DNA from: a virus
Taxonomy: Duplodnaviria; Heunggongvirae; Uroviricota; Caudoviricetes
IMG/VR virus record: IMGVR_UViG_2693429686_000003
DNA length: 34,347 bases
Reading direction: 5' to 3' (one strand)
Shown here: positions 8,730 through 33,567 of the stretch, piece by piece
How the letters are laid out: each line of letters begins with the position of its first letter
Position numbering within the stretch: the stretch's first letter is position 1
Notes under the pieces: generated by a model
What the model was told of the DNA's origin: nothing
Database searches by the model: none
The model's input: the letters and a program-made list of their open reading frames with translations, nothing else
Made by a program: the position numbers and the translations under genes

Positions 8730-9083
8730 GTGGCTGATTTCGATAACCTGTTCGATGCTGCCATTGCCCGCGCCGATGAAACGATACGCGGGTACATGGG
8801 AACGTCAGCCACCATGACATCCGGTGAGCAGTCAGGTGCGGTGATACGTGGTGTTTTTGATGACCCTGAAAATATCAGCTATGCCGGACAGGGCGTGCGC
8901 GTTGAAGGCTCCAGCCCGTCCCTGTTTGTCCGGACTGATGAGGTGCGGCAGCTGCGGCGTGGAGACACGCTGACCATCGGTGAGGAAAATTTCTGGGTAG
9001 ATCGGGTTTCGCCGGATGATGGCGGAAGTTGTCATCTCTGGCTTGGACGGGGCGTACCGCCTGCCGTTAACCGTCGCCGCTGA
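8730..9083 (+). CDS. FII: Head-tail connector protein gpFII (GTG start)
   Basis: 117-aa ORF matching lambda gpFII (MADFDNLFDAAIARADETIRGYMGTSAT...). Confidence 0.94.
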   Translation: MADFDNLFDAAIARADETIRGYMGTSATMTSGEQSGAVIRGVFDDPENISYAGQGVRVEGSSPSLFVRTDEVRQLRRGDTLTIGEENFWVDRVSPDDGGSCHLWLGRGVPPAVNRRR

Positions 9084-10072: not shown

Positions 10073-10813
10073 ATGCCTGTACCAAATCCTACAATGCCGG
10101 TGAAAGGTGCCGGGACCACCCTGTGGGTTTATAAGGGGAGCGGTGACCCTTATGCGAACCCGCTTTCAGACGTTGACTGGTCGCGTCTGGCAAAAGTTAA
10201 AGACCTGACGCCCGGCGAACTGACCGCTGAGTCCTATGACGACAGCTATCTCGATGATGAAGATGCAGACTGGACTGCGACCGGGCAGGGGCAGAAATCT
10301 GCCGGAGATACCAGCTTCACGCTGGCGTGGATGCCCGGAGAGCAGGGGCAGCAGGCGCTGCTGGCGTGGTTTAATGAAGGTGATACCCGTGCCTATAAAA
10401 TCCGCTTCCCGAACGGCACGGTCGATGTGTTCCGTGGCTGGGTCAGCAGTATCGGTAAGGCGGTGACGGCGAAGGAGGTGATTACCCGCACGGTGAAGGT
10501 CACCAATGTGGGACGTCCGTCGATGGCAGAAGATCGCAGCACGGTGACGGCGACGACCGGCATGACGGTGACACCCGCCAGTGCTTCCGTAGTGAAAGGG
10601 CAGAGCACCACGCTGACCGTGGCATTCCAGCCGGATGGCGCAACCGACAAGAGCTTCCGTGCGGTGTCTGCGGATAAAACAAAAGCCACCGTGTCGGTCA
10701 GTGGTATGACCATCACCGTGAAAGGTGTTGCTGCAGGCAAGGTCAACATTCCGGTCGTATCTGGTAATGGTGAGTTTGCTGCGGTTGCAGAAATCAACGT
10801 CACCGCCAGTTAA
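10073..10813 (+). CDS. V: Major tail tube protein gpV with C-terminal Ig-like domain
   Basis: [30 protein letters not shown]... matches lambda gpV (246 aa) from the internal ATG at 10073. Confidence 0.95.
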
Positions 10814-10828
10814 TCCGGAGAGTCAGCG

Positions 10829-11251
10829 ATGTTCCTGAAAACCGAATCATTTGAACATAACGGTGTGACCGTCACGCTTTCTGAACTGTCAGCCCTGCAG
10901 CGTATTGAGCATCTCGACCTGATGAAACGGCAGGCAGAACAGGCGGAGTCAGACAGCAACCGGAAGTTTACTGTGGAAGACGCCATCAGAACCGGCGCTT
11001 TTGTGGTTGCGATGTCCCTGTGGCATAACCATCCGAAGAAGACGCAGATGCCGTCCATGAATGAAGCCGTTAAACAGATTGAGCAGGAAGTGCTTACCAC
11101 CTGGCCCACAGAGGCAATTTCTCATGCTGAAAACGTGGTGTACCGGCTGTCCGGTATGTATGAGTTTGTGGTGAATGATGCTCCTGAACAGGCAGAGGAC
11201 GCCGGGCCTGCAGAGCCTGTTTCTGCGGGAAAGTGTTCGACGGTGAGCTGA
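10829..11251 (+). CDS. G: Tail assembly chaperone gpG
   Basis: 140-aa ORF matching lambda gpG. Confidence 0.95.
   Translation: MFLKTESFEHNGVTVTLSELSALQRIEHLDLMKRQAEQAESDSNRKFTVEDAIRTGAFVVAMSLWHNHPKKTQMPSMNEAVKQIEQEVLTTWPTEAISHAENVVYRLSGMYEFVVNDAPEQAEDAGPAEPVSAGKCSTVS
11227..11233 (+). promoter_or_regulatory. Programmed -1 ribosomal frameshift heptamer G GGA AAG producing the G-T fusion
   Basis: GGGAAAG sits in the G frame as G GGA AAG near the G 3' end, and the T frame opens in the -1 frame here, as in lambda. Confidence 0.85.
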
Positions 11252-11667
11252 GTTTTGCCCTGAAACTGGCGCGTGAGATGGGGCGACCCGACTGGCGCGC
11301 CATGCTTGCCGGGATGTCATCCACGGAGTATGCCGACTGGCACCGCTTTTACAGTACCCATTATTTTCATGATGTTCTGCTGGATATGCACTTTTCCGGG
11401 CTGACGTACACCGTGCTCAGCCTGTTTTTCAGCGATCCGGAGATGCATCCGCTGGATTTCAGTCTGCTGAACCGGCGCGAGGCTGACGAAGAGCCTGAAG
11501 ATGATGTGCTGATGCAGAAAGCGGCAGGGCTTGCCGGAGGTGTCCGCTTTGGCCCGGACGGGAATGAAGTTATCCCCGCTTCCCCGGATGTGGCGGACAT
11601 GACGGAGGATGACGTAATGCTGATGACAGTATCAGAAGGGATCGCAGGAGGAGTCCGGTATGGCTGA
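11233..11667 (+). CDS. T: gpT reading frame, expressed as the gpGT fusion by -1 frameshift
   Basis: 144-aa ORF matching the lambda T region (…LSFALKLAREMGRPDWRAMLAGMSSTEYADWHRFY…) directly after the slippery site. Confidence 0.9.
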   Translation: MFDGELSFALKLAREMGRPDWRAMLAGMSSTEYADWHRFYSTHYFHDVLLDMHFSGLTYTVLSLFFSDPEMHPLDFSLLNRREADEEPEDDVLMQKAAGLAGGVRFGPDGNEVIPASPDVADMTEDDVMLMTVSEGIAGGVRYG

Positions 11668-14221: not shown

Positions 14222-14547
14222 AAACCTTCCGCTGGAAAGTGAAACCCGGTATGGATGTGGCTTCGGCCCCTTCTGTAAGAAAGGTGCGCTTTGGTGATGG
14301 CTATTCCCAGCGAGCGCCTGCCGGGCTGAATGCCAACCTGAAAACGTACAGCGTGACGCTTTCTGTCCCCCGTGAGGAGGCCATGGTACTGGAGTCGTTT
14401 CTGGAAGAGCACGGGGGCTGGAAAGCCTTTCTGTGGACGCCGCCTTATGAGTGGCGGCAGATAAAGGTGACCTGCGCAAAATGGTCGTCGCGGGTCAGTA
14501 TGCTGCGTGTTGAGTTCAGCGCAGAGTTTGAACAGGTGGTGAACTGA
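14218..14547 (+). CDS. M: Tail tip protein gpM (copy 1)
   Basis: 109-aa ORF matching lambda gpM (MKTFRWKVKPGMDVAS...). Confidence 0.95.
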   Translation: MKTFRWKVKPGMDVASAPSVRKVRFGDGYSQRAPAGLNANLKTYSVTLSVPREEAMVLESFLEEHGGWKAFLWTPPYEWRQIKVTCAKWSSRVSMLRVEFSAEFEQVVN

Positions 14548-15245
14548 TGCAGGATATCCGGCAGGAAACACTGAATGAATGCACCCGTGCGGAGCAGTCG
14601 GCCAGCGTGGTGCTCTGGGAAATCGATCTGACAGAGGTCGGTGGAGAACGTTATTTTTTCTGTAATGAGCAGAACGAAAAAGGTGAGCCGGTCACCTGGC
14701 AGGGGCGACAGTATCAGCCGTATCCCATTCAGGGGAGTGGTTTTGAACTGAATGGCAAAGGCACCAGTACGCGCCCCACGCTGATGGTTTCTAACCTGTA
14801 CGGTATGGTCACCGGGATGGCGGAAGATCTACAGAGTCTGGTCGGCGGAACGGTGGTCCGGCGTAAGGTTTACGCCCGTTTTCTGGATGCGGTGAACTTC
14901 GTCAACGGAAACAGTGACGCCGATCCGGAGCAGGAGGTGATCAGCCGCTGGCGCATTGAGCAGTGCAGCGAACTGAGCGCGGTGAGTGCCTCTTTTGTAC
15001 TGTCCACGCCGACGGAAACAGATGGCGCTGTTTTTCCGGGACGTATCATGCTGGCCAACACCTGCACCTGGACCTATCGCGGCGATGAGTGCGGTTATCA
15101 CGGTCCGGCGGTCGCGGATGAATATGACCAGCCAACGTCCGACATCACGAAGGATAAATGCAGCAAATGCCTGAGTGGCTGTAAGTTTCGCAATAACGTC
15201 GGCAACTTTGGCGGCTTCCTTTCCATTAACAAACTTTCGCAGTAA
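14547..15245 (+). CDS. L: Tail tip protein gpL (copy 1)
   Basis: 232-aa ORF matching lambda gpL. Confidence 0.95.
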   Translation: MQDIRQETLNECTRAEQSASVVLWEIDLTEVGGERYFFCNEQNEKGEPVTWQGRQYQPYPIQGSGFELNGKGTSTRPTLMVSNLYGMVTGMAEDLQSLVGGTVVRRKVYARFLDAVNFVNGNSDADPEQEVISRWRIEQCSELSAVSASFVLSTPTETDGAVFPGRIMLANTCTWTYRGDECGYHGPAVADEYDQPTSDITKDKCSKCLSGCKFRNNVGNFGGFLSINKLSQ

Positions 15246-15250
15246 ATCCC

Positions 15251-15994
15251 ATGACAGAGACAGAATCAGCGATTCTGGCGCACGCCCGGCGATGTGCTCC
15301 AGCGGAGTCGTGCGGCTTCGTGGTAAGAACGCCGGAGGGGGAAAGATATTTCCCCTGCGTGAATATCTCCGGTGAGCCGGAGGCGTATTTCCGTATGTCG
15401 CCGGAAGACTGGCTGCAGGCAGAGATGCAGGGTGAGATTGTGGCACTGGTCCACAGCCACCCCGGTGGTCTGCCCTGGCTGAGTGAGGCCGACCGGCGGC
15501 TGCAGGTGCAGAGTGATTTGCCGTGGTGGCTGGTCTGCCGGGGGGCGATTCACAAGTTCCGCTGTGTGCCACATCTTACCGGGCGGCGCTTTGAGCACGG
15601 GGTGACGGACTGTTACACGCTGTTCCGGGATGCTTACCATCTGGCGGGGATTGAGATGCCGGATTTTCATCGTGAGGATGACTGGTGGCGTCACGGTCAG
15701 AATCTCTATCTGGATAATCTGGAGGCCACAGGGCTGTATCAGGTGCCGTTGTCAGCGGCGCAGCCGGGCGATGTGCTGCTGTGCTGTTTTGGTTCATCGG
15801 TGCCGAATCATGCCGCCATTTACTGTGGTGACGGCGAGCTGCTGCACCATATTCCTGAACAACTGAGCAAACGAGAGAGGTATACCGACAAATGGCAGCG
15901 ACGCACACACTCCCTCTGGCGTCACCGGGCATGGCACGCATCTGCCTTTACGGGGATTTGCAACGATTTGGCCGCCGCATCGACCTTCGTGTGA
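15251..15994 (+). CDS. K: Tail tip assembly protein gpK (copy 1), with MPN/JAB-like HSHPGG motif and NlpC/P60-like C-terminal region
   Basis: 247-aa ORF; residues 49 onward match lambda gpK as classically annotated (199 aa); the upstream extension starts 6 nt after the L stop. Confidence 0.92.
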   Translation: MTETESAILAHARRCAPAESCGFVVRTPEGERYFPCVNISGEPEAYFRMSPEDWLQAEMQGEIVALVHSHPGGLPWLSEADRRLQVQSDLPWWLVCRGAIHKFRCVPHLTGRRFEHGVTDCYTLFRDAYHLAGIEMPDFHREDDWWRHGQNLYLDNLEATGLYQVPLSAAQPGDVLLCCFGSSVPNHAAIYCGDGELLHHIPEQLSKRERYTDKWQRRTHSLWRHRAWHASAFTGICNDLAAASTFV

Positions 15995-16563
15995 AAACGG
16001 GTGCCGAAGCCATCCGGGCGATGGCCACACAGCTCCCTGCGTTTCGTCAGAAGCTGAGCGACGGCTGGTATCAGGTGCGTATTGCCGGGCAGGATGTTAG
16101 CACGTCCGGATTAACGGCACAGTTACATGAGGCTCTGCCTGACGGCGCTGTGATTCATATTGTTCCCAGAGTCGCCGGGGCCAAGTCAGGTGGTGTATTC
16201 CAGATTGTCCTGGGAGCAGCCGCCATTGCCGGATCATTCTTTACCGCCGGAGCCACCCTTGCAGCATGGGGGGCTGCCATTGGTGCCGGTGGTATGACCG
16301 GCATTCTGTTTTCTCTCGGTGCCAGTATGGTGCTCGGCGGTGTGGCTCAGATGCTGGCACCGAAAGCCAGAACTCCCCGCACACAGACAACGGATAACGG
16401 TAAGCAGAACACCTATTTCTCCTCACTGGATAACATGGTTGCCCAGGGCAATGTTATGCCTGTTCTGTATGGTGAAATGCGCGTGGGGTCACGTGTGGTA
16501 TCTCAGGAGATCAGCACGGCAGACGAAGGGGACGGTGGTCAGGTTGTGGTGATTGGTCGCTGA
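15892..16563 (+). CDS. I: Tail tip assembly protein gpI (copy 1)
   Basis: 223-aa ORF matching lambda gpI; overlaps the K 3' end by about 100 nt as in lambda. Confidence 0.93.
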   Translation: MAATHTLPLASPGMARICLYGDLQRFGRRIDLRVKTGAEAIRAMATQLPAFRQKLSDGWYQVRIAGQDVSTSGLTAQLHEALPDGAVIHIVPRVAGAKSGGVFQIVLGAAAIAGSFFTAGATLAAWGAAIGAGGMTGILFSLGASMVLGGVAQMLAPKARTPRTQTTDNGKQNTYFSSLDNMVAQGNVMPVLYGEMRVGSRVVSQEISTADEGDGGQVVVIGR

Positions 16564-16623
16564 TGCAAAATGTTTTATGTGAAATCGCCTCCGGGCGGTT
16601 TTATCGTTTATGGAGCATGACGA

Positions 16624-19152
<2,529 letters not shown>

Positions 19153-19196
19153 NTGAGGTGTACTGGCAATAGCGGACACTACCATTTGTTCTTTTT

Positions 19197-20015
19197 TTAA
19201 GCAGCCATCTGATGATATTTTTCCCTGAAGGCTGCCGGGGAGATATTCCCCAGACGAGAGTGACGACGCTGACGATTGTAGAAAATCTCAATGTATTCCC
19301 GTATTACTGAGATGGCTTCATCCCGGTTATTAAAACGATAGTGGCTCAGGCTCTCATTTTTCAGCGTTCCCCAGAAGCTTTCCATCGGAGCGTTGTCGTA
19401 ACAGTTACCTTTACGCGACATTGATGTTTTCAGACCAGACTGCTCCTGTATGACCCGGTAATCGTATGCGCAGTACTGTGAACCTCGATCAGAGTGGTGG
19501 ATTAGCCCGGCAGGTGGGCGCTGGCTCCTGAGCGCCATAAACAGGGCTTTACCTGTCAGCTCTTTTGTCATGCGCTCTCCCATGGCGTAGCCGACAATTT
19601 CGCACGTATAAACATCTTTGATGCCAGCGAGGTACAACCATCCCTCCTGTGTGGCAACATACGTCAGGTCCGCCACCCAGACCTGATTTGGTGCTGTAGG
19701 AGCGAACGTCTGGTTCAGCAGATTTGGCGCAACTGGCAGATTGTGGTTCGAGTTCGTAGTCGCTCTGAACTTGCGTTTCTGCTTACAGCGTAGCCTTAGC
19801 TCCTTACGAAGACGTGCCAGTCGGTCACGACCAACGATGATGCCATTCTCTGCCAGCTCCGTCTGGAGCCGCCGGGTTCCATATGTTTCGCGAGTGCGGA
19901 TATGTGCCACCTTAATCTCCAGTTTTAGCCGCTCATCACTTTGTTTTCTGTCTGAGGGTTCATGCTGTACCCAGTTGTAATAACCGCTCCTGGATACACC
20001 AAATACCTGACACAT
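19197..20015 (-). CDS. IS3-family transposase OrfB (DDE integrase domain); made in vivo as an OrfAB fusion
   Basis: 272-aa ORF with the recognisable IS3-family catalytic region (…VWVADLTYV…HSDRGSQY…GNCYDNAPMESFWGTLK…). Confidence 0.9.
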   Translation of the reverse strand: MCQVFGVSRSGYYNWVQHEPSDRKQSDERLKLEIKVAHIRTRETYGTRRLQTELAENGIIVGRDRLARLRKELRLRCKQKRKFRATTNSNHNLPVAPNLLNQTFAPTAPNQVWVADLTYVATQEGWLYLAGIKDVYTCEIVGYAMGERMTKELTGKALFMALRSQRPPAGLIHHSDRGSQYCAYDYRVIQEQSGLKTSMSRKGNCYDNAPMESFWGTLKNESLSHYRFNNRDEAISVIREYIEIFYNRQRRHSRLGNISPAAFREKYHQMAA

Positions 20016-20050
20016 CGCTTCAATGGGAAATTGTTGTCGCCATTGTTCGA

Positions 20051-20353
20051 TTAACGCGTATTTTTCAGCGACTCCTGTGCAAAATACGCTGTTGCTTTTT
20101 TTAATATATCTCGCTCAAGGCGAGCTTCATTTAACGCCTTACGCAGTTGCAGAATTTCAGATTCCAGTTCAGCCACCGTGCGGGAACCAGGAGTACCGAG
20201 CCCTTTTCTGGCGGCGGTAACCCATTGTCCTAAAGTGCCTTCAGGAAGAGATAATCGGGAAGCGCCTTCACTGATCGAAAGTTGATTTTCAGGAACCGTT
20301 CTGACAGCTTCGGCTTTGAACTCTTTAGAGTAACGTTGGGTTTTTCTGCTCAT
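20051..20353 (-). CDS. IS3-family transposase OrfA (HTH DNA-binding, leucine-zipper-like C-terminus)
   Basis: 100-aa ORF MSRKTQRYSKEFKAEAVRTV..., as recalled for IS600 OrfA. Confidence 0.88.
   Translation of the reverse strand: MSRKTQRYSKEFKAEAVRTVPENQLSISEGASRLSLPEGTLGQWVTAARKGLGTPGSRTVAELESEILQLRKALNEARLERDILKKATAYFAQESLKNTR
20096..20102 (-). promoter_or_regulatory. A7 slippery run (T7 on the plus strand) at the orfA 3' end: predicted -1 frameshift site for OrfAB
   Basis: The minus strand reads ...TTA AAA AAA GCA... in the orfA frame just before its stop; A6G/A7 motifs are the usual IS3-family frameshift signal. Confidence 0.6.
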
Positions 20354-20417
20354 TATTAGCTCCTTCTGATGCCATTCTATTTCAGGAAGGAGTGTCCGTT
20401 AAACTCAGGCTACCTCA

Positions 20418-20757
20418 GTCTGCTGATTTGAGTCGCTACAGTGGCACGGTGGTTAACCGTCCGACGTTTTTTGCTTTTGCAAAAGGCGCGGGTGTGATGG
20501 GGGAAGCGGGACCTGAAGCCATTCTGCCACTGCGTCGCGGTGCTGATGGTAAGCTGGGGGGTGTGGCGGATACTGGTGGTTCAGGCATGGTGATGTTTGC
20601 CCCGCAGTACAACATTGAGATCAATAACGATGGCACGAACGGGCAGATAGGTCCGGCTGCCCTGAAGGTGGTTTATGACCTCGGGAAAAAAGCGGCCGCG
20701 GACTTTATGCAACAGCAGGCCCGTGATGGTGGCCGGTTAAGTGGAGCATACCGGTAA
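20418..20757 (+). pseudogene. H: 3' fragment (about 110 codons) of a divergent tape-measure gene H, fused to the IS end
   Basis: The translation aligns with the C-terminus of gpH (…NNDGTNGQIGPAALKVVYD…RDGG…) but differs from H copy 1; its stop overlaps the M2 start as H/M do. Confidence 0.8.
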
Positions 20758-21086
20758 TGGAGACGTTTCACTGGAAAGTGCGCCCGGATATGAATGTGGT
20801 ATCAGAGCCGAAAGTGGTGACAGTGAAGCTGGGCGATGGTTATGAACAGCGTCGTGCGGCGGGACTGAATAACCAGTTGTCGACTTACAGCGTGAAGATA
20901 CGTGTTCGTAAAGGTGAACACCCATTTTTAAAAGCCTTTCTGGAACGGCACGGTGGCGTCCGCGCATTTCAGTGGACGCCACCTTATGACTGGAAGCCGA
21001 TCAGGGTGGTTTGTCGTAAATGGTCGGCAAGCGTGGGGGCGTTGTGGGTAACCATAACGGCAGATTTTGAACAGGTCGTGGCATAG
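20757..21086 (+). CDS. M: Tail tip protein gpM (copy 2, divergent allele)
   Basis: 109-aa ORF METFHWKVRPDMNVVSEP..., same length as copy 1 and visibly divergent from it. Confidence 0.9.
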   Translation: METFHWKVRPDMNVVSEPKVVTVKLGDGYEQRRAAGLNNQLSTYSVKIRVRKGEHPFLKAFLERHGGVRAFQWTPPYDWKPIRVVCRKWSASVGALWVTITADFEQVVA

Positions 21087-21095
21087 GAGGCTCTG

Positions 21096-21794
21096 ATGCA
21101 GGATATTCCACAGGAAACACATCATGAGACGACACGCCTCACTCAGTCAGCCCAGGTGGTGCTCTGGGAAATCGATCTGACAGAGGTCGGTGGAGAACGT
21201 TATTTTTTCTGTAATGAGCAGAACGAAAAAGGTGAGCCGGTTACCTGGCAGGGGCGGCAGTATCAGGCATACCCCATTCAGGGGACGGGATTTGAACTGA
21301 ACGGCAAGGGCAGTGCTGCCCGTCCGACACTGACGGTTTCTAACCTGCACGGAATGGTCACCGGGATGGCGGAAGACCTGCAGAGTCTGGTCGGCGGAAC
21401 GGTGGTCAGGCGTAAGGTTTACGCCCGTTTTCTGGATGCGGTGAACTTCGTCAACGGAAACAGCGACGCCGATCCGGAACAGGAGGTGATCAGCCGCTGG
21501 CGCATCGAGCAGTGCAGCGAACTGAGCGCGGTCAGTGCCTCTTTTGTGCTGGCCACACCAACGGAGACGGATGGCGCGGTTTTCCCGGGGCGTATCATGC
21601 TGGCGAATACCTGTATGTGGACTTACCGTTCTGATGAGTGTGGTTACACGGGCAGGGCAGTGGCTGACGAGTTCGACAAACCAACGACGGATATCCGGAA
21701 GGACAAATGCAGCAAGTGTATGCGCGGGTGTGAGTTGCGCAACAATACCGGTAATTTCGGCGGTTTCCTTTCCATCAATAAACTTTCTCAGTAA
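21096..21794 (+). CDS. L: Tail tip protein gpL (copy 2)
   Basis: 232-aa ORF; the N-terminal ~25 residues differ from L copy 1 and the rest is nearly identical. Confidence 0.93.
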   Translation: MQDIPQETHHETTRLTQSAQVVLWEIDLTEVGGERYFFCNEQNEKGEPVTWQGRQYQAYPIQGTGFELNGKGSAARPTLTVSNLHGMVTGMAEDLQSLVGGTVVRRKVYARFLDAVNFVNGNSDADPEQEVISRWRIEQCSELSAVSASFVLATPTETDGAVFPGRIMLANTCMWTYRSDECGYTGRAVADEFDKPTTDIRKDKCSKCMRGCELRNNTGNFGGFLSINKLSQ

Positions 21795-21798
21795 ATCC

Positions 21799-22542
21799 AT
21801 GACACAGACAGAATCAGCGATTCTGGCGCACGCCCGGCGATGTGCGCCAGCGGAGTCGTGTGGCTTCGTGGTAAGAACGCCGGAGGGAGACAGGTATCTT
21901 CCCAGCGAGAATATCTCCGGTGAGCCGGAGGAACGGTTCCGGATGGCTCCGGAGGACTGGCTGCGGGCACAAATGCAGGGTGAGATTGTGGCGCTGGTCC
22001 ACAGTCATCCCGGTGGTCTGCCCTGGCTGAGTGAGGCTGACCGGCGGCTGCAGGTGCAGAGTGATTTGCCGTGGTGGCTGGTCTGCCGGGGGGCGATTCA
22101 CAAGTTCCGCTGTGTGCCGCATCTCACCGGGCGGCGCTTTGAGCACGGGGTGACGGACTGTTACACGCTGTTCCGGGATGCTTATCATCTGGCAGGGATT
22201 GAGATGCCGGATTTTCATCGCGGGGATGACTGGTGGCGTAACGGTCAGAATCTCTATCTTGACAATATGGAGGTGACGGGTTTTTACCGTGTCGCACTGA
22301 CAGAGGCACAGCCGGGCGATGTGCTGCTGTGCTGTTTTGGTTCATCGGTGCCGAATCATGCCGCCATTTACTGTGGTGACGGCGAGCTGCTGCACCATAT
22401 TCCTGAACAACTGAGCAAACGAGAGAGGTATACCGACAAATGGCAGCGACGCACACACTCCCTCTGGCGTCACCGGGCATGGCGCGCATCTGCCTTTACG
22501 GGGATTTACAACGATTTGGTCGCCGCATCGACCTTCGTGTGA
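21799..22542 (+). CDS. K: Tail tip assembly protein gpK (copy 2)
   Basis: MTQTESAILAHARRCAPAESCGF... begins at the ATG 5 nt after the L2 stop; nearly identical to K copy 1. Confidence 0.92.
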   Translation: MTQTESAILAHARRCAPAESCGFVVRTPEGDRYLPSENISGEPEERFRMAPEDWLRAQMQGEIVALVHSHPGGLPWLSEADRRLQVQSDLPWWLVCRGAIHKFRCVPHLTGRRFEHGVTDCYTLFRDAYHLAGIEMPDFHRGDDWWRNGQNLYLDNMEVTGFYRVALTEAQPGDVLLCCFGSSVPNHAAIYCGDGELLHHIPEQLSKRERYTDKWQRRTHSLWRHRAWRASAFTGIYNDLVAASTFV

Positions 22543-23081
22543 AAACGGGGGCTGAAGCCATCCGGGCACTGGCCACACAGCTCCCGGCGTTTCGTCAGAA
22601 ACTGAGTGACGGCTGGTATCAGGTGCGCATTGCCGGGCGTGATGCAGGTGAAACCGAATTGTCTGCCCGTCTTAATGAGCCGCTGGCAAATGGTGCAGTG
22701 ATCCACATAGTACCGCGTCTGGTGGGAGCTAAAAGTGGCGGTGTGTTTCAGGCGGTGCTGGGGGCGGCTGTTATGGCGGTTGCTATATGGATGCCGGGGG
22801 TAGGAATTATGGCGAGTAATCTGCTGTTTTCTCTCGGTGCCAGTATGACGCTTGGCGGTGTTGCACAGATGCTGGCACCGAAAGCCAGAACTCCCCGTAC
22901 ACAGACAACGGATAACGGTAAGCAGAACACGTATTTCTCGTCACTGGATAACATGGTTGCCCAGGGCAATGTTCTGCCCGTTCTGTACGGTGAAATGCGC
23001 GTGGGGTCACGTGTGGTTTCTCAGGAGATCAGCACGGCAGACGAAGGGGATGGTGGTCAGGTTGTGGTGATTGGTCGCTGA
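22440..23081 (+). CDS. I: Tail tip assembly protein gpI (copy 2; 213 aa with a divergent central segment)
   Basis: Matches gpI at both ends; the central hydrophobic segment differs from copy 1. Confidence 0.92.
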   Translation: MAATHTLPLASPGMARICLYGDLQRFGRRIDLRVKTGAEAIRALATQLPAFRQKLSDGWYQVRIAGRDAGETELSARLNEPLANGAVIHIVPRLVGAKSGGVFQAVLGAAVMAVAIWMPGVGIMASNLLFSLGASMTLGGVAQMLAPKARTPRTQTTDNGKQNTYFSSLDNMVAQGNVLPVLYGEMRVGSRVVSQEISTADEGDGGQVVVIGR

Positions 23082-23141
23082 TGCAAAATGTTTTATGTGA
23101 AACCGCCTGCGGGCGGTTTTGTCGTTTATGGAGCGTGAGGA

Positions 23142-26100
23142 ATGGGTAAAGGCAGCAGTAAGGGGCATACCCCGCGCGAAGCGAAGGACAACCTGAAATC
23201 CACGCAGTTGCTGAGTGTGATTGATGCCATCAGCGAAGGGCCGGTTGACGGTCCGGTGGATGGATTAAAAAGCGTGCTGCTGAACGGTACGCCGGTCCTG
23301 GACAGCGAGGGGAAGACAAACTTTTCCGGTGTTACGGTGGTGTTCCGTGCAGGTGAGCAGGAGCAGACACCGCCGGAGGGTTTTGAATCCTCCGGCTCCG
23401 AGACGGTGCTGGGTACGGAAGTGAAATATGACACGCCGATCACCCGGACCATCACGTCGGCAAACATCGACCGTCTGCGCCTGACCTTCGGTGTGCAGGC
23501 ACTGGTGGAAACCACCTCAAAGGGTGACCGGAATCCGTCGGAAGTCCGCCTGCTGGTTCAGATACAGCGTAACGGTGGCTGGGTGACGGAAAAAGACATC
23601 ACCATTAAGGGCAAAACCACTTCGCAGTATCTGGCCTCGGTGGTGGTGGGTAACCTGCCGCCGCGCCCGTTTAATATCCGGATGCGCAGGATGACACCGG
23701 ACAGCACCACAGACCAGCTGCAGAACAAAACGCTCTGGTCGTCGTACACCGAAATCATCGATGTGAAACAGTGCTACCCGAACACGGCGCTGGTCGGCGT
23801 GCAGGTGGATTCAGAGCAGTTCGGTAACCAGCAGGTGAGTCGCAATTATCATCTTCGCGGGCGCATTCTGCAGGTGCCGTCGAACTATAACCCGCAGACG
23901 CGGCAATACAGCGGTATCTGGGACGGAACGCTTAAGCCAGCATACAGCAACAACATGGCCTGGTGTCTGTGGGACATGCTCACTCATCCGCGCTACGGCA
24001 TGGGGAAACGTCTTGGTGCGGCAGATGTGGACAAATGGGCGCTGTATGTCATCGGCCAGTACTGCGACCAGTCAGTGACGGACGGATTTGGCGGCACGGA
24101 GCCGCGCATCACCTGTAACTCTTACCTGACCACACAGCGTAAGGCGTGGGATGTTCTCAGTGATTTCTGCTCGGCGATGCGCTGTATGCCGGTATGGAAC
24201 GGACAGATGCTGACGTTCGTGCAGGACCGACCGTCGGATAAGGTGTGGACCTATAACCGCAGTAATGTGGTGATGCCGGACGATGGCGCGCCGTTCCGCT
24301 ACAGCTTCAGCGCCCTGAAGGACCGCCATAATGCCGTTGAGGTGAACTGGATTGACCCAGATAACGGCTGGGAGACGGCGACAGAGCTTGTGGAGGATAC
24401 GCAGGCCATTGCCCGTTACGGTCGTAATGTCACGAAGATGGATGCCTTTGGCTGTACCAGCCGGGGGCAGGCACACCGAGCCGGGCTGTGGCTGATTAAA
24501 ACGGAACTGCTGGAGACGCAGACCGTGGATTTCAGCGTGGGTGCTGAAGGGCTTCGTCATGTACCGGGCGATGTCATTGAAATCTGCGATGATGATTATG
24601 CCGGTATCAGCACCGGTGGTCGCGTACTGGCGGTGAACAGCCAGACCCGGACGCTGACGCTCGACCGTGAAATCACGCTGCCGTCCTCCGGTACCACGCT
24701 GATAAGCCTGGTTGACGGAAGTGGCAATCCGGTCAGCGTGGAGGTCCAGTCCGTCACCGACGGCGTGAAGGTGAAAGTGAGCCGGGTTCCTGACGGCGTT
24801 GCAGAATACAGCGTGTGGGGGCTGAAGCTGCCGACGCTGCGCCAGCGTCTGTTCCGCTGCGTGAGTATCCGTGAGAACGACGACGGCACGTATGCCATCA
24901 CCGCCGTGCAGCATGTGCCGGAAAAAGAGGCCATCGTGGATAACGGGGCACACTTTGACGGTGACCGGCGCGGCACGGTGAATGGTGTCACGCCGCCAGC
25001 GGTGCAGCATCTGACCGCCGAAGTCACCGCAGACAGCGGGGAATATCAGGTGCTGGCGCGATGGGACACGCCGAAGGTGGTGAAGGGTGTGAGCTTCCTG
25101 CTTCGCCTGACCGTGGCAGCGGACGACGGCAGTGAGCGGCTGGTCAGCACAGCCAGGACGACGGAAACCACATACCGCTTCAGGCAGCTGGCGCTGGGGA
25201 ATTACAGTCTGACAGTCCGGGCGGTAAATGCCCGGGGGCAGCAGGGCGATCCGGCGTCGGTATCGTTCCGGATTGCGGCACCGGCAGCGCCTGTCACTAT
25301 TGAACTGATACCGGGGTATTTTCAGATAACGGCGGTCCCGAAACTGGCTGTATATGACCCGACGGTGCAGTTTGAGTTCTGGTTTTCGGAAAAGCGGATT
25401 GCGGATATCAGGCAGGTTGAAACCACAGCACGCTATCTTGGCACGGCGCTGTACTGGATAGCCGCCAGTATCAATATCAGGCCGGGCCATGATTATTATT
25501 TTTACGTTCGCAGTGTGAACACCGTTGGCAAATCGGCATTTGTGGAGGCCATCGGTCGGGCGAGCGATGATGCAGAAGGTTATCTGAATTTTTATAAAGG
25601 GTTGATCAATAAAACGCATCTCGGCAAGGAGTTGTGGACGCAGATTGATAACGGTCAGCTTGCGCCGGACCTGACTGAAATCAGGACGTCCATTACGAAT
25701 GTCAGCAATGAAATCACGCAAACCGTCAATAAAAAACTGGAAAATCAGAGTGCTGCAATCCAGCAGATACAGAAAGTTCAGGTTGATACAAATAATAACC
25801 TGAACAGCATGTGGGCTGTGAAGCTGCAACAGATGAAGGACGGACGCCTTTATATTGCGGGTATCGGTGCCGGTATTGAGAATACGCCAGCAGGAATGCA
25901 GAGTCAGGTGCTGCTGGCGGCAGACAGGATTGCGATGATTAATCCTGCGAATGGCAACACAAAGCCGATGTTTGTTGGTCAGGGCGATCAGATATTCATG
26001 AACGACGTGTTCCTGAAATGCCTGACGGCTCCGACCATTACCAGCGGCGGTAATCCTCCGGCATTTTCCCTGACACCTGGCGGACGGCTGACGGCGAAAA

Positions 26101-26621
26101 ATGCCGATATCAGCGGTAACGTGAACGCGAACTCCGGGACGCTCAACAACGTCACGATTAATAAGAACTGTCGGGTTCTGGGAAAATTGTCCGCGAACCA
26201 GATTGAAGGCGATCTCGTTAAAACAGTGGGCAAACCTTTCCCACGGGACTCCCGGGCACCGGAGAGGTGGCCATCAGGGACCATTACCGTCAGGGTTTAT
26301 GACGATCAGCCGTTTGATCGGCAAATTGTTATTCCCGCGGTGGCGTTTCGCGGTGCTAAACATGAGCGGAAGAATAACAATATTTATTCGTCATGCCGCC
26401 TGATAGTGAAGAAAAACGGTGCTGAAATTTATAACCGAACGACCCTGGATAATACGCTGATATATACGGGTGTTATTGATATGCCTGCCGGTCACGGTCA
26501 CATGACGCTGGAGTTTTCTGTATCGGCATGGCTGGTAAATGGCTGGTATCCCACAGCAAGTATCAGCGATTTGCTGGTTGTGGTGATGAAGAAAGCCACT
26601 GCAGGCATCACGATTAGCTGA
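23142..26621 (+). CDS. J: Central tail fibre/host-specificity protein gpJ (copy 2, intact, 1159 aa)
   Basis: Full-length ORF collinear with lambda gpJ (1132 aa); the N-terminal ~840 residues are almost identical to J copy 1. Confidence 0.96.
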
Positions 26622-26640
26622 ATTTTATAACCCAGATACG

Positions 26641-26666
26641 GGCACCAGAAATGGTGCCTTTTTTAT
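26641..26666 (+). terminator. Rho-independent terminator after J copy 2 (ggcacc-agaaat-ggtgcc + T6)
   Basis: Perfect 6-bp stem with T-run, 20 nt after the J2 stop and before the lom RBS. Confidence 0.7.
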
Positions 26667-26688
26667 TGCAGAAAAGCGAGAGGTAATT

Positions 26689-27288
26689 ATGCGTAAAGTT
26701 TGTGCAGCCATTTTGTCCGCAGCCATTTGCCTGGCCGTATCCGGTGCGCCTGCATGGGCGTCTGAACATCAGTCCACGCTGAGCGCCGGGTATCTTCAGA
26801 CCCATACTGATATGCCAGGCAGCGATGACCTGAAGGGCATTAACGTGAAATACCGTTATGAGTTTACGGACACGCTGGGGCTGATTACGTCATTCAGTTA
26901 TGCCAACGCTGAAGATGAGCAAAAAACGCATTACAGCGATACCCGCTGGCATGAGGATTCCGTGCGTAACCGCTGGTTCAGCGTGATGGCGGGGCCGTCT
27001 GTGCGCGTGAATGAATGGTTCAGCGCGTATGCGATGGCGGGCGTGGCTTACAGCCGTGTGTCGACCTTCTCCGGGGATTATCTCCGCGTAACTGACAACA
27101 AGGGGAAAACGCACGATGTGCTGACCGGAAGTGATGGCGGTCGCCACAGCAACACGTCTCTGGCGTGGGGGGCTGGCGTGCAGTTTAACCCGACCGAATC
27201 CGTGGCCATTGACCTTGCTTATGAAGGTTCCGGCAGTGGTGACTGGCGCACTGACGGTTTCATCGTGGGTGTCGGTTATAAGTTCTGA
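26689..27288 (+). CDS. lom: Outer-membrane beta-barrel protein Lom (Ail/Lom family), copy 1, intact
   Basis: 199-aa ORF with signal peptide (MRKVCAAILSAAICLAVSGAPAWA) and a C-terminal aromatic residue; lambda Lom-like. Confidence 0.93.
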   Translation: MRKVCAAILSAAICLAVSGAPAWASEHQSTLSAGYLQTHTDMPGSDDLKGINVKYRYEFTDTLGLITSFSYANAEDEQKTHYSDTRWHEDSVRNRWFSVMAGPSVRVNEWFSAYAMAGVAYSRVSTFSGDYLRVTDNKGKTHDVLTGSDGGRHSNTSLAWGAGVQFNPTESVAIDLAYEGSGSGDWRTDGFIVGVGYKF

Positions 27289-27314
27289 TTAGCCAGGTAA
27301 CACAGTGTTATGAC

Positions 27315-27340
27315 TGCCCGCTGGTTCAGGCGGGCTTTTT
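27315..27340 (+). terminator. Terminator-like hairpin after lom copy 1 (gcccgc-tggttcag-gcgggc + T5)
   Basis: Inverted repeat plus T-run directly after the lom stop. Confidence 0.55.
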
Positions 27341-27351
27341 GTGGGGTGAAT

Positions 27352-27678
27352 ATGGCAGTAAAGATTTCAGGTGTACTGAAAGATGGGGCGGGTAAACCTG
27401 TCGTAAATTGTGCGATTGAACTGCGGGCCAGAAGAACCAGTCCGACCGTTGTGGCACACGTTGTTGCCACTTGCGTGACGGACAATAACGGTGCTTATGT
27501 GATTGAGGCTGAGCCGGGGTATTACGAGGTTGCGCTTCACTGTAACGGCTGGCAGCCAACCCGTGTCGGGGATATTGATGTGGCACCGACTGATGCACCG
27601 GGGACACTGAACGCGTTTCTGAATGCACCAAAGGATGGTGATTTACGTCCGGAGGTGATGAAGTGTCAGCGCCAGTGA
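27352..27678 (+). pseudogene. stf: 5' fragment of a side tail fibre gene (stf allele B, about 104 codons), cut by the IS21-like end
   Basis: [17 protein letters not shown]... matches the conserved Stf N-terminus and diverges from the full stf at 29903; after …DLRPEVMK the sequence becomes the IS end (TGTCAGCGCCAGTG…). Confidence 0.8.
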
Positions 27679-27907
27679 TATAAGACGGTAATTCGCCATT
27701 TGGATTGTCCGCTCCACCCAACATGTTGTTTCCTTAAGGTTCTCACACCAGAAAGGACATCAACATGCTGAGCAGAGAGGACTTTTACATGATAAAGCAA
27801 ATGCGCCAGCAGGGCGCGTACATCGTCGATATTGCGACTCAGATTGGTTGCTCTGAACGGACGGTCAGACGCTACCTCAAATACCCTGAACCGCCAGCCA
27901 GAAAGAC
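27664..27907 (+). mobile_element. istA: Left end of an IS21-family element, including the first 47 codons of istA (27765-27907), truncated by the scaffold gap
   Basis: The terminus starts TGTCAGC…; ORF MLSREDFYMIKQMRQQGAYIVDIATQIGCSERTVRRYLKYPEPPARK matches my recollection of the IS21 IstA HTH N-terminus; it runs into NNNN. Confidence 0.6.
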
Positions 27908-27911
27908 NNNN
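27908..27911. other. Assembly gap (NNNN), a scaffold join
   Basis: Four ambiguous bases; sequence context changes abruptly from the IS21 istA 5' end to mid-J. Confidence 0.95.
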
Positions 27912-29251
27912 TTGAGCTGACGCCGGGCTATTTTCAGATAACCGCCACGCCGCATCTTGCGGTTTATGATCCGACGGTACAGTTTGAGTTCTGGTTCTCG
28001 GAAAAGCGGATTGCGGATATCAGGCAGGTTGAAACCACAGCACGCTATCTTGGCACGGCGCTGTACTGGATAGCCGCCAGTATCAATATCAAACCGGGCC
28101 ATGATTATTACTTTTATATCCGCAGTGTGAACACCGTTGGCAAATCGGCATTCGTGGAGGCTGTTGGTCAGCCGAGTGATGATGCATCCGGTTATCTGGA
28201 TTTTTTCAAAGGCGAGATAGGGAAAACCCATCTGGCTCAGGAGCTGTGGACGCAGATTGATAACGGTCAGCTTGCGCCTGACCTGGCTGAAATCAGGACG
28301 TCCATTACGGATGTCAGCAATGAAATCACGCAGACCGTCAATAAGAAACTGGAAGACCAGAGTGCGGCAATTCAGCAGATACAGAAGGTTCAGGTTGATA
28401 CAAATAATAACCTGAACAGCATGTGGGCTGTGAAGCTGCAGCAGATGCAGGACGGACGCCTTTATATCGCGGGTATTGGTGCCGGTATTGAGAACACCCC
28501 TGACGGCATGCAGAGTCAGGTGCTGCTGGCGGCGGACAGGATTGCGATGGTTAATCCTGCGAATGGCAACACAAAACCGATGTTTGTTGGTCAGGGCGAT
28601 CAGATATTCATGAACGACGTGTTCCTGAAACGCCTGACGGCCCCCACCATTACCAGCGGTGGAAATCCATCGGCATTTTCCCTGACTCCGGACGGAAAGC
28701 TGACCGCTAAAAATGCGGATATCAGTGGCAGTGTGAATGCGAACGCCGGGACGCTCAACAATGTCACGGTAAATGAAAACTGTACGATTAAGGGCATGCT
28801 GGAGGCGACTCAGGTCAGAGGTGACTTCGTTAAAGCTGTATCCAAATCATTTCCGAAACAGGCTGGTACGTGGGGTAACACGGAAACACCAAACGGGACG
28901 GTTACAGTCACCATAAGCGATGATCATAACTTTGACCGCCAGATTATTATTCCGCCCATTATTTTTAACGGTATAGCGTATGACGATCCGGGGAGCGGAA
29001 ATAACCCAGGAGGCACGCGATACACGGGTTATGGTTTTGAAGTTCGCAAAAACGGCGTATTAATCGCATCCAGAGAAACTAAAGGTGCCATTCCCGGTAG
29101 TTACAGTGCAGTTATTGATATGCCTAGTGGTGGTGGTAGCGTCACTCTGGAGTTTAAGATTTTCCAGAAAGGCAATCAGGGGGCAGGCAATATCACCGAC
29201 TGTACGGTGATTGTGACCAAAAAAGCGGCTTCCGGCATCAGTATTCGTTGA
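27912..29251 (+). pseudogene. J: 3' portion of J (allele 1), residues about 775 to the end, with a C-terminal domain unlike J copy 2
   Basis: 27912-28118 is identical to 18946-19152 (end of truncated J copy 1) and continues in the J frame (ORF 28127-29251 lies within it); the last ~145 residues differ from J copy 2. Confidence 0.85.
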
Positions 29252-29273
29252 AATATTTATAACCCCAATAAAT

Positions 29274-29299
29274 GGCGTCAGGAATGACGCCTTTTTTAT
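29274..29299 (+). terminator. Rho-independent terminator after J allele 1 (ggcgtca-ggaa-tgacgcc + T6)
   Basis: Perfect 7-bp stem and T-run; the stem sequence differs from the 26641 terminator but keeps pairing; downstream sequence is identical. Confidence 0.7.
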
Positions 29300-29321
29300 T
29301 GCAGAAAAGCGAGAGGTAATT

Positions 29322-29838
29322 ATGCGTAAAGTTTGTGCAGCCATTTTGTCCGCAGCCATTTGCCTGGCCGTATCCGGTGCGCCTGCATGGGCGTCTGAAC
29401 ATCAGTCCACGCTGAGCGCGGGGTATCTTCATGCCCGGACCAACGTTCCCGGCAGTGATGATCTGAACGGGATTAACGTGAAATACCGTTATGAGTTTAC
29501 GGATACGCTGGGGCTGGTGACGTCATTCAGCTATGCAGGAGACAAGAATCGCCAGCTGACCCGTTACAGCGATACCCGCTGGCATGAAGATTCCGTGCGT
29601 AACCGCTGGTTCAGCGTGATGGCGGGGCCGTCTGTGCGCGTGAATGAATGGTTCAGCGCGTATGCGATGGCGGGTGTGGCTTACAGCCGTGTGTCGACTT
29701 TTTCCGGGGATTATATCCGCGTAACTGACAATAAGGGGAAAACGCACGATGTGCTGACCGGAAGTGATGACGGTCGCCACAGCAACACGTCTCTGGCGCA
29801 CTGACGGTTTCATCGTGGGTGTCGGTTATAAATTCTGA
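29322..29838 (+). pseudogene. lom: lom copy 2 with an 83-bp internal deletion giving a frameshift and premature stop at 29804
   Basis: Identical to lom copy 1 in most of its length; sequence jumps from …acgtctctggcg to cactgacggtttcatcg…, omitting 83 bp present in copy 1, with the 6-bp repeat ctggcg at both deletion borders. Confidence 0.75.
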
Positions 29839-29865
29839 TTAGCCAGGTAACACAGTGTTATGACA

Positions 29866-29891
29866 GCCCGCCGGTTCAGGCGGGCTTTTTT
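29866..29891 (+). terminator. Rho-independent terminator after lom copy 2 (gcccgcc-ggttca-ggcgggc + T6)
   Basis: Perfect 7-bp stem and T-run. Confidence 0.65.
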
Positions 29892-29902
29892 GTGGGGTGA
29901 AT

Positions 29903-32900
29903 ATGGCAGTAAAGATTTCAGGTGTACTGAAAGACGGCACAGGAAAACCGGTACAGAACTGCACAATCCAGCTGAAAGCAAAACGTAACAGCACCACGGT
30001 GGTGGTGAACACGCTGGCCTCAGAAAATCCGGATGAAGCCGGGCGTTACAGCATGGACGTTGAGTACGGTCAGTACAGCGTTATTCTGTTGGTGGAAGGA
30101 TTCCCGCCGTCACATGCCGGGACCATCACCGTGTATGAAGATTCCCGACCCGGTACGCTGAATGATTTTCTCGGTGCCATGACGGAGGATGATGCCCGTC
30201 CGGAGGCACTGCGCCGTTTTGAGCTGATGGTGGAAGAGGTGGCGCGTAACGCGTCCGCGGTGGCACAGAACACGGCAGCCGCGAAGAAATCAGCCAGCGA
30301 TGCCAGCACATCAGCCCGTGAGGCGGCAACCCATGCGACTGATGCTGCAGATTCAGCACGTGCAGCCAGCACGTCAGCCGGACAGGCCGCTTCGTCGGCT
30401 CAGTCAGCGTCTTCCAGCGCAGGAACGGCATCAACAAAGGCCACTGAAGCCTCAAAAAGTGCTGCCGCTGCAGAGTCCTCAAAAAGCGCGGCGGCTACCA
30501 GTGCCGGTGCGGCGAAAACGTTAGAAACGAATGCGGCAGCGTCACAACAATCAGCAGCCACTTCTGCATCCACCGCGACCACGAAAGCGTCAGAAGCTGC
30601 CACCTCAGCCCGGGATGCGTCGGCTTCAAAAGAGGCGGCAAAATCATCAGAAACGAACGCATCATCAAGCGCCAGTAGCGCAGCTTCCTCGGCGACGGCG
30701 GCTGCAAATTCTGCGAAGGCGGCCAAAACGTCCGAGACGAACGCCAGGTCTTCTGAAACGGCAGCGGGACAGAGTGCCTCAGCTGCGGCAGGCTCAAAAA
30801 CAGCGGCTGCGTCGTCTGCCAGCGCCGCGTCAACAAGTGCCGGGCAGGCCTCAGCCAGTGCCACCGCCGCCGGAAAATCGGCAGAAAGCGCCGCATCATC
30901 CGCTTCAACAGCCACAACGAAGGCTGGCGAAGCCACTGAGCAGGCCACGGCAGCAGCGAGGTCAGCTTCCGCAGCGAAGACATCCGAAACGAACGCGAAA
31001 GCGTCGGAAACCCGTGCAGAATCCTCAAAAACGGCTGCCGCATCGTCCGCCAGTTCGGCGGCGTCATCGGCATCATCGGCGTCTGCTTCAAAAGATGAGG
31101 CGACCAGACAGGCGTCAGCAGCGAAGGGCAGCGCCACGACGGCATCCACGAAGGCGACAGAGGCTGCTGGTAGTGCGACGGCAGCAGCTCAGAGCAAAAG
31201 TACGGCGGAATCTGCAGCAACGCGCGCTGAGACAGCGGCAAAACGGGCAGAGGATATTGCATCCGCCGTGGCGCTTGAGGATGCGAGCACGACGAAAAAG
31301 GGGATAGTACAGCTCAGTAGTGCGACTAACAGCACTTCCGAGTCACTGGCGGCAACACCAAAAGCCGTTAAGGCCGCGTATGACCTGGCTAACGGGAAAT
31401 ACACCGCACAGGATGCAACGACAGCACAGAAAGGGATAATCCAGCTAAGCAGCGCGACCAACAGCACGTCTGAAACGCTGGCGGCAACGCCAAAGGCAGT
31501 AAAAGCAGCCAATGACAATGCTGAGAAACGTCTGCAGAAAGATCAGAACGGTGCGGATATCCCTGGCAAAGACACCTTTACGAAAAATATTGGTGCCTGC
31601 CGTGCCTTCGGTGGGTCAGTAAGCACAACAACAGGAAACTGGACGACTGCACAGTTTATCGAGTGGCTGGATTCTCAGGGAGCATTTAACCATCCATACT
31701 GGATGTGCAAGGGTTCCTGGTCTTATGGCAATAATAAAATCATTACTGATACTGGCTGCGGTAATATTCATCTCGCCGGAGCTGTCATTGAAGTAATGGG
31801 GATAAAGTCAGCGATGACGATCCGCATTACCACTCCGACCACATCCAGCGGTGGCGGAACAACCAACGCCCAGTTTACCTATATTAATCACGGAACAGAT
31901 TATTCACCTGGCTGGCGAAGGGACTATAACTCCAGAAATAAGCCAACGGCATCAGAGATCGGGGCGCTACCGTCAGGTGGAACAGCAGTATCATCAGTTA
32001 ATCTGGCTTCAAAAGGTCGGGTAGCCGCGCTGACAGACAATACGCAGGGGGCAGCAGGTCTTGAGTTATACGAGGTGTATAACAACGGATATCCAACAGC
32101 GTATGGAAATATCATTCACCTGAAAGGGATGACAGCCGTTGGCGAAGGTGAGTTACTCATCGGCTGGAGTGGTACAAGCGGTGCTCATGCTCCGGCATTT
32201 ATTCGTTCACGACGGGATACGACCGACGCAAACTGGTCGCCGTGGGCGCAGCTTTACACCTCGGCTCATCCTCCTGCAGAGTTTTATCCAGTCGGTGCAC
32301 CAATCCCGTGGCCATCAGATACCGTTCCGTCTGGTTATGCCCTGATGCAGGGGCAGACTTTTGACAAATCTGCTTACCCGAAACTTGCAGCCGCTTATCC
32401 GTCAGGCGTGATCCCTGATATGCGTGGCTGGACGATTAAGGGCAAGCCCGCCAGTGGTCGTGCCGTATTGTCTCAGGAACAGGATGGCATTAAATCGCAC
32501 ACCCACAGCGCCAGCGCATCCAGTACGGATTTGGGGACGAAAACCACATCGTCGTTTGATTACGGCACTAAATCCACGAATAACACCGGGGCGCATACGC
32601 ACAGTCTGAGCGGCTCTACAAGTTCAGCTGGGGCCCACCAACATAGTCAGACTGGGCCCAGAACGAATAGCGGGAGTCAACCTACTGGAATGTTTCCGGC
32701 AGGGAGTACTCAAGTTAGCGGGACTAATCAGGTTGGTATCAGTGGCTCATTAACCAGTGGCACCTCCCAATGGGTAGGTAAATCATCTTCAGAAGGAAAC
32801 CATACACACTCACTGTCCGGCACAGCAGCATCTGCGGGTGCACACGCGCATACTGTCGGTATTGGTGCTCATACGCACTCTGTTGCGATTGGTTCACATG

Positions 32901-32986
32901 GACACACCATCACCGTTAACGCTGCTGGTAACGCGGAAAACACCGTCAAAAACATCGCATTTAACTATATTGTGAGGCTCGCATAA
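29903..32986 (+). CDS. stf: Side tail fibre protein Stf: conserved N-terminus, long Ala/Ser/Thr-rich repeat region, two phage-tail-fibre repeats (…[14 protein letters not shown](S/T)[11 protein letters not shown]…), His-rich C-terminus
   Basis: N-terminus ([30 protein letters not shown]…) and C-terminus (…[31 protein letters not shown]) match lambda Stf; the ORF is 1029 aa from GTG 29897 against 774 aa in lambda. Confidence 0.93.
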
Positions 32987-33567
32987 TGGCATTCAGAATG
33001 AGTGAACAAGCACGGACCATAAAAATTTATAACCTGCTGGCCGGAACTAATGAATTTATTGGTGAAGGTGACGCATATATTCCGCCTCATACAGGTCTGC
33101 CTGCAAACAGTACCGATATTGCACCGCCAGATATTCCGGCTGGTTTCGTGGCTGTTTTCAACAGTGATGAGTCATCGTGGCATCTCGTTGAAGATCATCG
33201 GGGTAAAACGGTTTATGACGTGGCTTCCGGCGACGCGTTATTTATTTCTGAACTCGGCTCATTACCGGAAAATGTCACCTGGTTATCCCCGGAAGGGGAG
33301 TTTCAGAAGTGGAACGGCACAGCCTGGGTGAAGGATACGGAAGCAGAAAAACTGTTCCGGATCCGGGAGGCGGAAGAAACAAAAAACAGCCTGATGCAGG
33401 TAGCCAGTGAGCATATAGCGCCGCTTCAGGATGCTGTGGATCTGGAGATCGCAACGGAGAAAGAAACCTTGTTGCTGGAAGCTTGGAAAAAGTATCGGGT
33501 GTTGCTGAACCGTGTTGATACATCAACTGCACCGGATATTGAATGGCCAGTAGCACCTATAGGGTAA
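32986..33567 (+). CDS. tfa: Tail fibre assembly chaperone Tfa
   Basis: 193-aa ORF matching lambda Tfa ([61 protein letters not shown]…); start overlaps the stf stop (TAATG). Confidence 0.94.

Follow-up and report, generated by a model that had tools for sequence, protein, structure and literature searches.

An IS21 insertion in the side-tail-fibre gene of a defective Shigella sonnei prophage, and the doubtful gene order around it in a draft scaffold

Introduction

The window investigated here is a stretch of 34,347 nucleotides recorded as a virus of the Caudoviricetes (IMG/VR record IMGVR_UViG_2693429686_000003). It appears to contain two successive lom-stf modules of lambdoid phages, and in the first of them (27352-27907) the beginning of a side-tail-fibre gene (stf) is followed by what resembles the end of an insertion sequence and then by a run of Ns. 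The locus raises two questions: whether this stf was really interrupted by transposition, and whether the sequence after the Ns is the continuation of the disrupted gene. An earlier note on this DNA had proposed an insertion of the IS21 family and had asked whether the rest of the element and the 3' part of the gene lie beyond the gap.

IS21 is the type element of the IS21 family and comes from the IncP-alpha plasmids R68 and RP4, the latter being its classical home. It is inserted by IstA (a transposase with HTH and DDE regions) and IstB (an AAA+ ATPase), which create a short target duplication, of 4 bp for IS21. In Shigella, IS-mediated pseudogenisation is the best-documented feature of genome evolution.

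Results

A truncated stf in a defective prophage

The ORF opening at the ATG in 27352 (plus strand) starts 63 nt after lom copy 1, itself preceded by a complete J of 1159 aa. This lom copy (26689-27288, plus strand) encodes a 199-aa Ail/Lom protein matching PF06316 over its full length (E 4e-129), and complete S. sonnei chromosomes with this junction carry the identical protein upstream of it. The first 104 codons of the ORF (312 nt, 27352-27663), here called stf', correspond to the N-terminus of lambdoid Stf proteins and match positions 1-104 from 134 of PF08400 (prophage tail fibre N-terminal, E 9.8e-37). The protein shares 50% identity with the second Stf N-terminus of the window, starting at 29903, so its earlier description as a divergent allele of about 104 codons is correct.

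At the DNA level, 27300-27663 is 99.7% identical to the region of an intact 470-aa stf in the EIEC E. coli CFSAN029787, annotated as 'prophage tail fiber N-terminal domain-containing protein'; the same holds for eight further complete genomes. Each of these alignments ends at 27663. Nucleotides 1-312 of stf are 99.7-100% identical to the intact 1413-nt CFSAN029787 gene (WP_046880233.1), and the pairwise alignment places the break between ...GATGAAG and TGTCAGCG. From this point the stf' frame enters the insertion sequence for four codons (Cys-Gln-Arg-Gln) and reaches a stop codon at 27676-27678, the IS-encoded tail (27664-27678, plus strand) being seen both in the ORF listing (...EVMKCQRQ*) and in deposited S. 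sonnei proteins.

The domain and the gene position are those of a lambdoid stf, with the order J-lom-stf' in the window and the 3' part of stf plus a DUF4376 gene in complete genomes. The ORF is not complete, the fusion stopping at codon 108 inside IS21. We conclude that stf' belongs to the lambdoid Stf family but is cut off within its N-terminal domain, a pseudogene fragment rather than a functional gene, which agrees with the claim that the stf after lom copy 1 had been inactivated by an IS. Between lom and stf, both modules have a GC-rich hairpin and then a run of Ts (gcccgc-n8-gcgggc-ttttt; 27296-27340 and 29846-29890), which looks like an intrinsic terminator kept in the two.

The prophage carrying stf' is a defective remnant. 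Its left edge is a complete IS600 of 1264 bp (19154-20417, minus strand), 100% identical to the IS600 of S. sonnei pINV plasmids and containing ORFs of 100 and 272 aa with HTH_Tnp_1 and rve domains. The tape-measure gene is cut short by this IS600; the ORF that follows (20392-20757, 121 aa) is similar only to the C-terminal 52 residues of the tape-measure protein H. In FORC_011, the one genome examined upstream of the remnant, late-regulatory genes were found there and no head genes. Complete genomes vary upstream of the remnant's IS600, where nested or partial IS600 copies occur.

Identity of the insertion sequence

All 244 bases of 27664-27907 (plus strand) match the left end (nt 1-244 from 2131) of an IS annotated as IS21 (E 6e-124, no mismatches). 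The left terminus at 27664 begins with TGTCAGCGCC..., and a full copy of the element (L002:3501-5631) has 2131 bp with inverted termini TGTCA..CGCCA. The terminal inverted repeat is TGTCAGCGCCA at 27664 and TGTCAACGCCA at the right end of full copies in inverse orientation; these short imperfect repeats were read by eye, and an inverted-repeat search of the full IS did not report them. The TG...CA termini typical of the IS21 family are thus present, the left one in the window and both in full copies. A search for the IS21 right end elsewhere in the window revealed nothing beyond chance.

The istA gene starts with the ATG at 27765 and has 47 complete codons before the N run, being cut by the contig end (istA', 27765-27907, plus strand). 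Even this short segment matches the Pfam domains HTH_23 and HTH_7 and positions 1-38 of NF033546 (IS21 transposase, E 3e-5). In full copies, which are identical over the 244 bp of the window, istA is followed by istB: the 390-aa IstA reaches 284 bits with NF033546 (cutoff 160), and the 265-aa IstB reaches 302 bits with NF038214 (IS21 helper ATPase; cutoff 200). By BLAST, the full copy has 99.0% identity over 2130 from 2131 nt with the IS21 next to aph(3')-Ib in pRP4 (CP152305.1), and PGAP names the products 'IS21-like element IS21 family transposase / helper ATPase IstB [Shigella sonnei]'. The target duplication was also found, with GAAG on both sides of the element in CP179997.1 (positions 8972-8975 and 11107-11110 of locus L022). 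The duplication and the right end of the IS were read in other genomes, the window containing the left end only.

By sequence, every testable feature of IS21 is present, and the element is IS21 itself. As only 244 bp lie inside the window, it could be asked whether another member of the family, such as IS100 or an ISSso element, was involved, but those bases match without exception the 2131-bp copies that are 99.0% identical to the IS21 of RP4 and carry the PGAP name IS21, which leaves this option with a negligible chance. IS100 in particular is excluded by the length of 2131 bp, the 390-aa IstA, the 265-aa IstB and the 99% match with the RP4 element. The earlier note had described an IS21-family terminus with a 47-codon IstA HTH N-terminus directly after stf', to be abandoned if 27664-27907 resembled neither an IS21-family end nor istA. 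The complete match and the HTH hits agree with that description, and all its positions and codon counts were correct. Twelve IS are listed for S. sonnei 53G, IS21 among them, and IS600 is also on the published list (PMC7373316).

The junction in deposited genomes

An exact lookup of the 108-aa fusion protein returned one complete chromosome (CP010829.1) and seven short draft contigs with CX-prefix accessions. In PMC5447701, CP010829.1 is S. sonnei FORC_011, and assemblies with accessions of the CX prefix are cited as S. sonnei (Holt et al.). Together with a 122-aa form starting at an upstream ATG, the protein is found in hundreds of public S. sonnei genomes: the shorter form is on 8 contigs and the longer one on 533, all named S. 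sonnei. Every complete S. sonnei chromosome examined at this locus carries the stf'/IS21 junction with the Stf'-CQRQ* ORF. Of the seven draft contigs, six break off 38 nt past the stop, some 53 nt inside the IS, as short-read assemblies are expected to do at a multicopy repeat.

On the other hand, none of 5,426 complete E. coli genomes has the junction, considering places that cover at least 80% of 27300-27907. An exact search with 36 nt of the junction among the GTDB species representatives also found none, and our guess is that this collection includes no genome standing for S. sonnei itself. The exact junction is already known from public S. sonnei genomes, in which its product has a name. 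The site is not found by name as stf::IS21 in PMC7373316 or PMC12795559, their supplementary insertion tables aside.

As assembly errors are evident elsewhere in this low-quality scaffold, the junction itself might be taken for a chimera in which an intact stf was joined to an unrelated IS copy. The presence of the identical junction in complete chromosomes of independent origin and in draft contigs from Sanger sequencing, together with one genome showing both IS ends with matching 4-bp duplications, makes such an artefact practically out of the question.

Simple, nested, deleted and duplicated forms of the locus

The locus was retrieved through the lom protein and dissected by BLAST, resulting in 11 junction loci (L003 and L013-L022) from ten complete chromosomes. 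The simplest arrangement is that of CP179997.1, with stf nt 1-312, IS21 nt 1-2131 and stf nt 309-1413 between the GAAG flanks, as in a simple insertion. The stf is followed there by the DUF4376 gene and then by sitDCBA. This chromosome probably belongs to the ancestral lineage 1, an assignment based only on the neighbouring accession CP179999, which is a plasmid of lineage 1.5 (PMC12795559).

Eight of the other ten loci (L003, L013-L016 and L019-L021) have a nested form. In these, IS21 nt 1-428 are followed by a complete IS600 flanked by the duplication GTT, IS21 nt 424-1098, an inverted IS600 truncated at nt 1177, and stf from nt 746 onward. This form has lost 1033 bp of IS21 (nt 1099-2131) and 433 bp of stf (nt 313-745). 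A further deletion is found in CP045526.1 (L017, 8976-9433), where IS21 nt 1-425 are followed by 33 unassigned bases and stf from nt 746, both IS600 copies and the middle piece of IS21 being gone.

In S. sonnei 75/02 (CP019689.1; L018 and L019) the whole H'-M-L-K-I-J-lom-stf'::IS21' module is tandemly duplicated with IS600 at the joint: in this one strain the remnant has truly been duplicated through an IS. The S. sonnei draft contig CXFU01000079.1 has repeated 5' segments of stf, with the 1029-aa stf of the other locus adjoining sitDCBA, and is another chimeric short-read assembly between the two tail-fibre loci.

The N joins of the window

The window contains Ns at three places, 18186 (one N), 19153 (one N) and 27908-27911 (four Ns). 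Masking was considered as their origin and rejected, since duplicated overlapping sequence flanks each of these positions. In a self-comparison, 18946-19152 is repeated exactly at 27912-28118 (207 bp), and a 161-bp segment of J at 18025-18185 recurs at 18189-18349 with 94% identity. The latter repeat (18025-18349) straddles the single N at 18186 and breaks the reading frame of J; it looks like unmerged ends of paralogous J contigs, with no real duplication.

Compared with S. sonnei Ss046 (CP000038.1, L011), 10767-18185 is collinear with 99.9% identity and 27912-33109 is collinear with 100% identity. The prophage is uninterrupted in Ss046, with the order H-M-L-K-I-J(1165 aa)-lom'(160 aa)-stf(1029 aa), and the window piece 18187-19152 bridges and overlaps both collinear blocks. 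J is uninterrupted in this genome and in ten more, that is, in all 11 complete chromosomes. The sequence following the NNNN (27912-29251, plus strand) is the 3' part of this J, continuing that of 16624-19152; it has nothing to do with the disrupted stf.

At 7 and 16 positions, the J pieces adjoining the Ns disagree with every one of the eleven complete genomes, while 27912-29300 is identical to nine of them and differs at one position from the other two. The 16 mismatches to all 11 genomes belong to the 966-bp piece 18187-19152, and 13 of 17 differences correspond to the paralogous J allele of the remnant (23142-26621). Judged by these differences, the piece is probably a consensus of mixed paralogues, but it could instead be a third J fragment truncated by IS600. 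Since a single N (19153) separates this fragment from the IS600, the reading of a J interrupted by IS600 is not trustworthy.

In the complete genomes where both were seen, the two lom-stf loci are about 0.7 Mb apart, for example at 1.27 and 1.96 Mb in CP023645.1 and at 2.84 and 3.57 Mb in CP179997.1. The NNNN at 27908-27911 thus has flanks from distant loci and is a scaffold join rather than a short unsequenced gap within a single locus, so that the sequence after it is very probably not the continuation of IS21 or of the disrupted stf. Complete genomes put the rest of both at the locus linked to sitABCD, either intact (CP179997.1) or rearranged by IS600. In no genome examined are the two lom-stf loci neighbours, and their tandem look in the window would come from the N joins.

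From the complete genomes of other isolates, we infer that the block 19153-27911 (IS600, H', M, L, K, I, J, lom and stf'::IS21') was very probably mis-scaffolded into the J of another prophage, as the unmerged contig ends and the mixed-paralogue consensus suggest. Its contig reaches 244 bp into a multicopy IS, beyond a typical k-mer, which we guess to be a product of gap-filling.

The join at the NNNN could also be real, resulting from an IS-mediated deletion or recombination that fused about 248 bp of IS21 to J, in which case the lom-stf modules would be truly in tandem. The scaffold itself places both modules together, and S. sonnei does rearrange and duplicate this module through IS600, as in the tandem duplication of 75/02. 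However, the block has Ns exactly at both of its edges with overlapping J sequence (207 bp exact and 161 bp with 94% identity), as expected for unmerged contig ends and not for transposition. In addition, J is uninterrupted in every one of the complete chromosomes compared, all 11 junction loci (from ten complete chromosomes) continue IS21 to at least nt 425, and the J pieces beside the Ns show the mismatches of mixed paralogues. We consider a real fusion improbable, and the misplacement of the block by the scaffolder is kept as the preferred reading.

The second module

The stf after lom copy 2 was said to be intact, and so it is: the ORF has its full length (1027/1029 aa) and is the same in Ss046, and in the window an intact tfa comes after it. 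In contrast to the 199 aa of copy 1, lom copy 2 (29322-29804) encodes 160 aa, lacking about 77 bp that match 27166-27242. The same 160-aa lom occurs in Ss046 and in other complete S. sonnei genomes, which indicates a real pseudogene. The tfa (32986-33567) encodes 193 aa with PF02413 and is intact in the window and in 10 complete chromosomes; in Ss046 it lacks about 62 bp at window positions 33110-33172 and is frameshifted.

Discussion

We suggest, with a probability of about 93%, that the first stf of the window is a pseudogene made by transposition, with IS21 inserted in the stf of a decayed prophage, and that a scaffold join then connected it to another prophage. IS21 was inserted between nt 312 and 313 of the stf of an S. 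sonnei lambdoid remnant, duplicating the 4 bp GAAG. The insertion parts the N-terminal (tail-attachment) domain of Stf from the remainder of the protein, with translation ending after 108 residues. The distal receptor-binding part and a putative assembly gene are unlinked from stf', and partly deleted in most lineages.

In most S. sonnei lineages, an IS600 then entered istA at nt 428 of IS21 (target duplication GTT), and a second, inverted IS600 is associated with a deletion that took IS21 nt 1099-2131 and stf nt 313-745. The forms found in different genomes can be ordered as an intact stf (as in EIEC), a simple IS21 insertion, and then the IS600 insertion and deletion, an order that we infer from comparing them. 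As for the window, the draft contig stops 244 bp into IS21, where the scaffolder would have joined it through the NNNN to the J of the other prophage.

Since the prophage was already defective, the insertion in stf would be neutral decay and not a regulated switch. This is how we read it most simply, and no evidence for a regulatory or adaptive role was found. The 108-aa stub, composed of the Stf N-terminal domain and CQRQ, is fixed across S. sonnei, and it could be imagined to be expressed and functional. In such a case it might, for instance, compete on the tails of superinfecting lambdoid phages for the site where fibres attach. Because the S. sonnei clone is young, the fixation of the stub is uninformative about selection, and we regard a function for it as very unlikely.

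The biological importance of the insertion is small, as the locus is just another pseudogene that an IS has made in a defective prophage. What is new and useful is that the gene order across the N joins of the window (18186, 19153 and 27908-27911) is unreliable, and readings such as two tandem lom-stf modules or a J interrupted by IS600 should be distrusted. The series of states (intact stf, simple IS21, nested IS600 with deletion, and further deletion or tandem duplication) shows in textbook fashion how IS elements bring about decay step by step, and could be used to mark lineages.

Comparison with known systems

The nearest intact relative is the stf of CFSAN029787 (WP_046880233.1), which occupies the same place after J and lom and has the same N-terminal domain. 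The gene of the window differs in being cut at codon 104 from 470, with its 3' part and the DUF4376 gene absent from the window. The downstream neighbourhood is also different, with sitABCD in S. sonnei and ipaH in the EIEC strain.

The element resembles the IS21 of RP4 in its 2131 bp, TG...CA termini, 390-aa IstA followed by a 265-aa IstB, 4-bp duplication and 99.0% identity. It differs from it by a divergence of about 1%, being an enterobacterial isoform. In addition, this copy is broken by IS600 and lacks nt 1099-2131 in most S. sonnei genomes, and only nt 1-244 are in the window.

Reference genomes of S. sonnei contain about 480-500 IS and about 660-710 pseudogenes each (PMC12795559). The stf::IS21 insertion is the same in kind as the IS-driven pseudogenisation and prophage decay described for Shigella (Hawkey et al. 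2020, PMC7373316; PMC12795559), with which it shares an IS-interrupted gene, nested IS600 insertions and an IS-associated deletion. It is a case of ordinary IS-driven prophage decay, a process already known.
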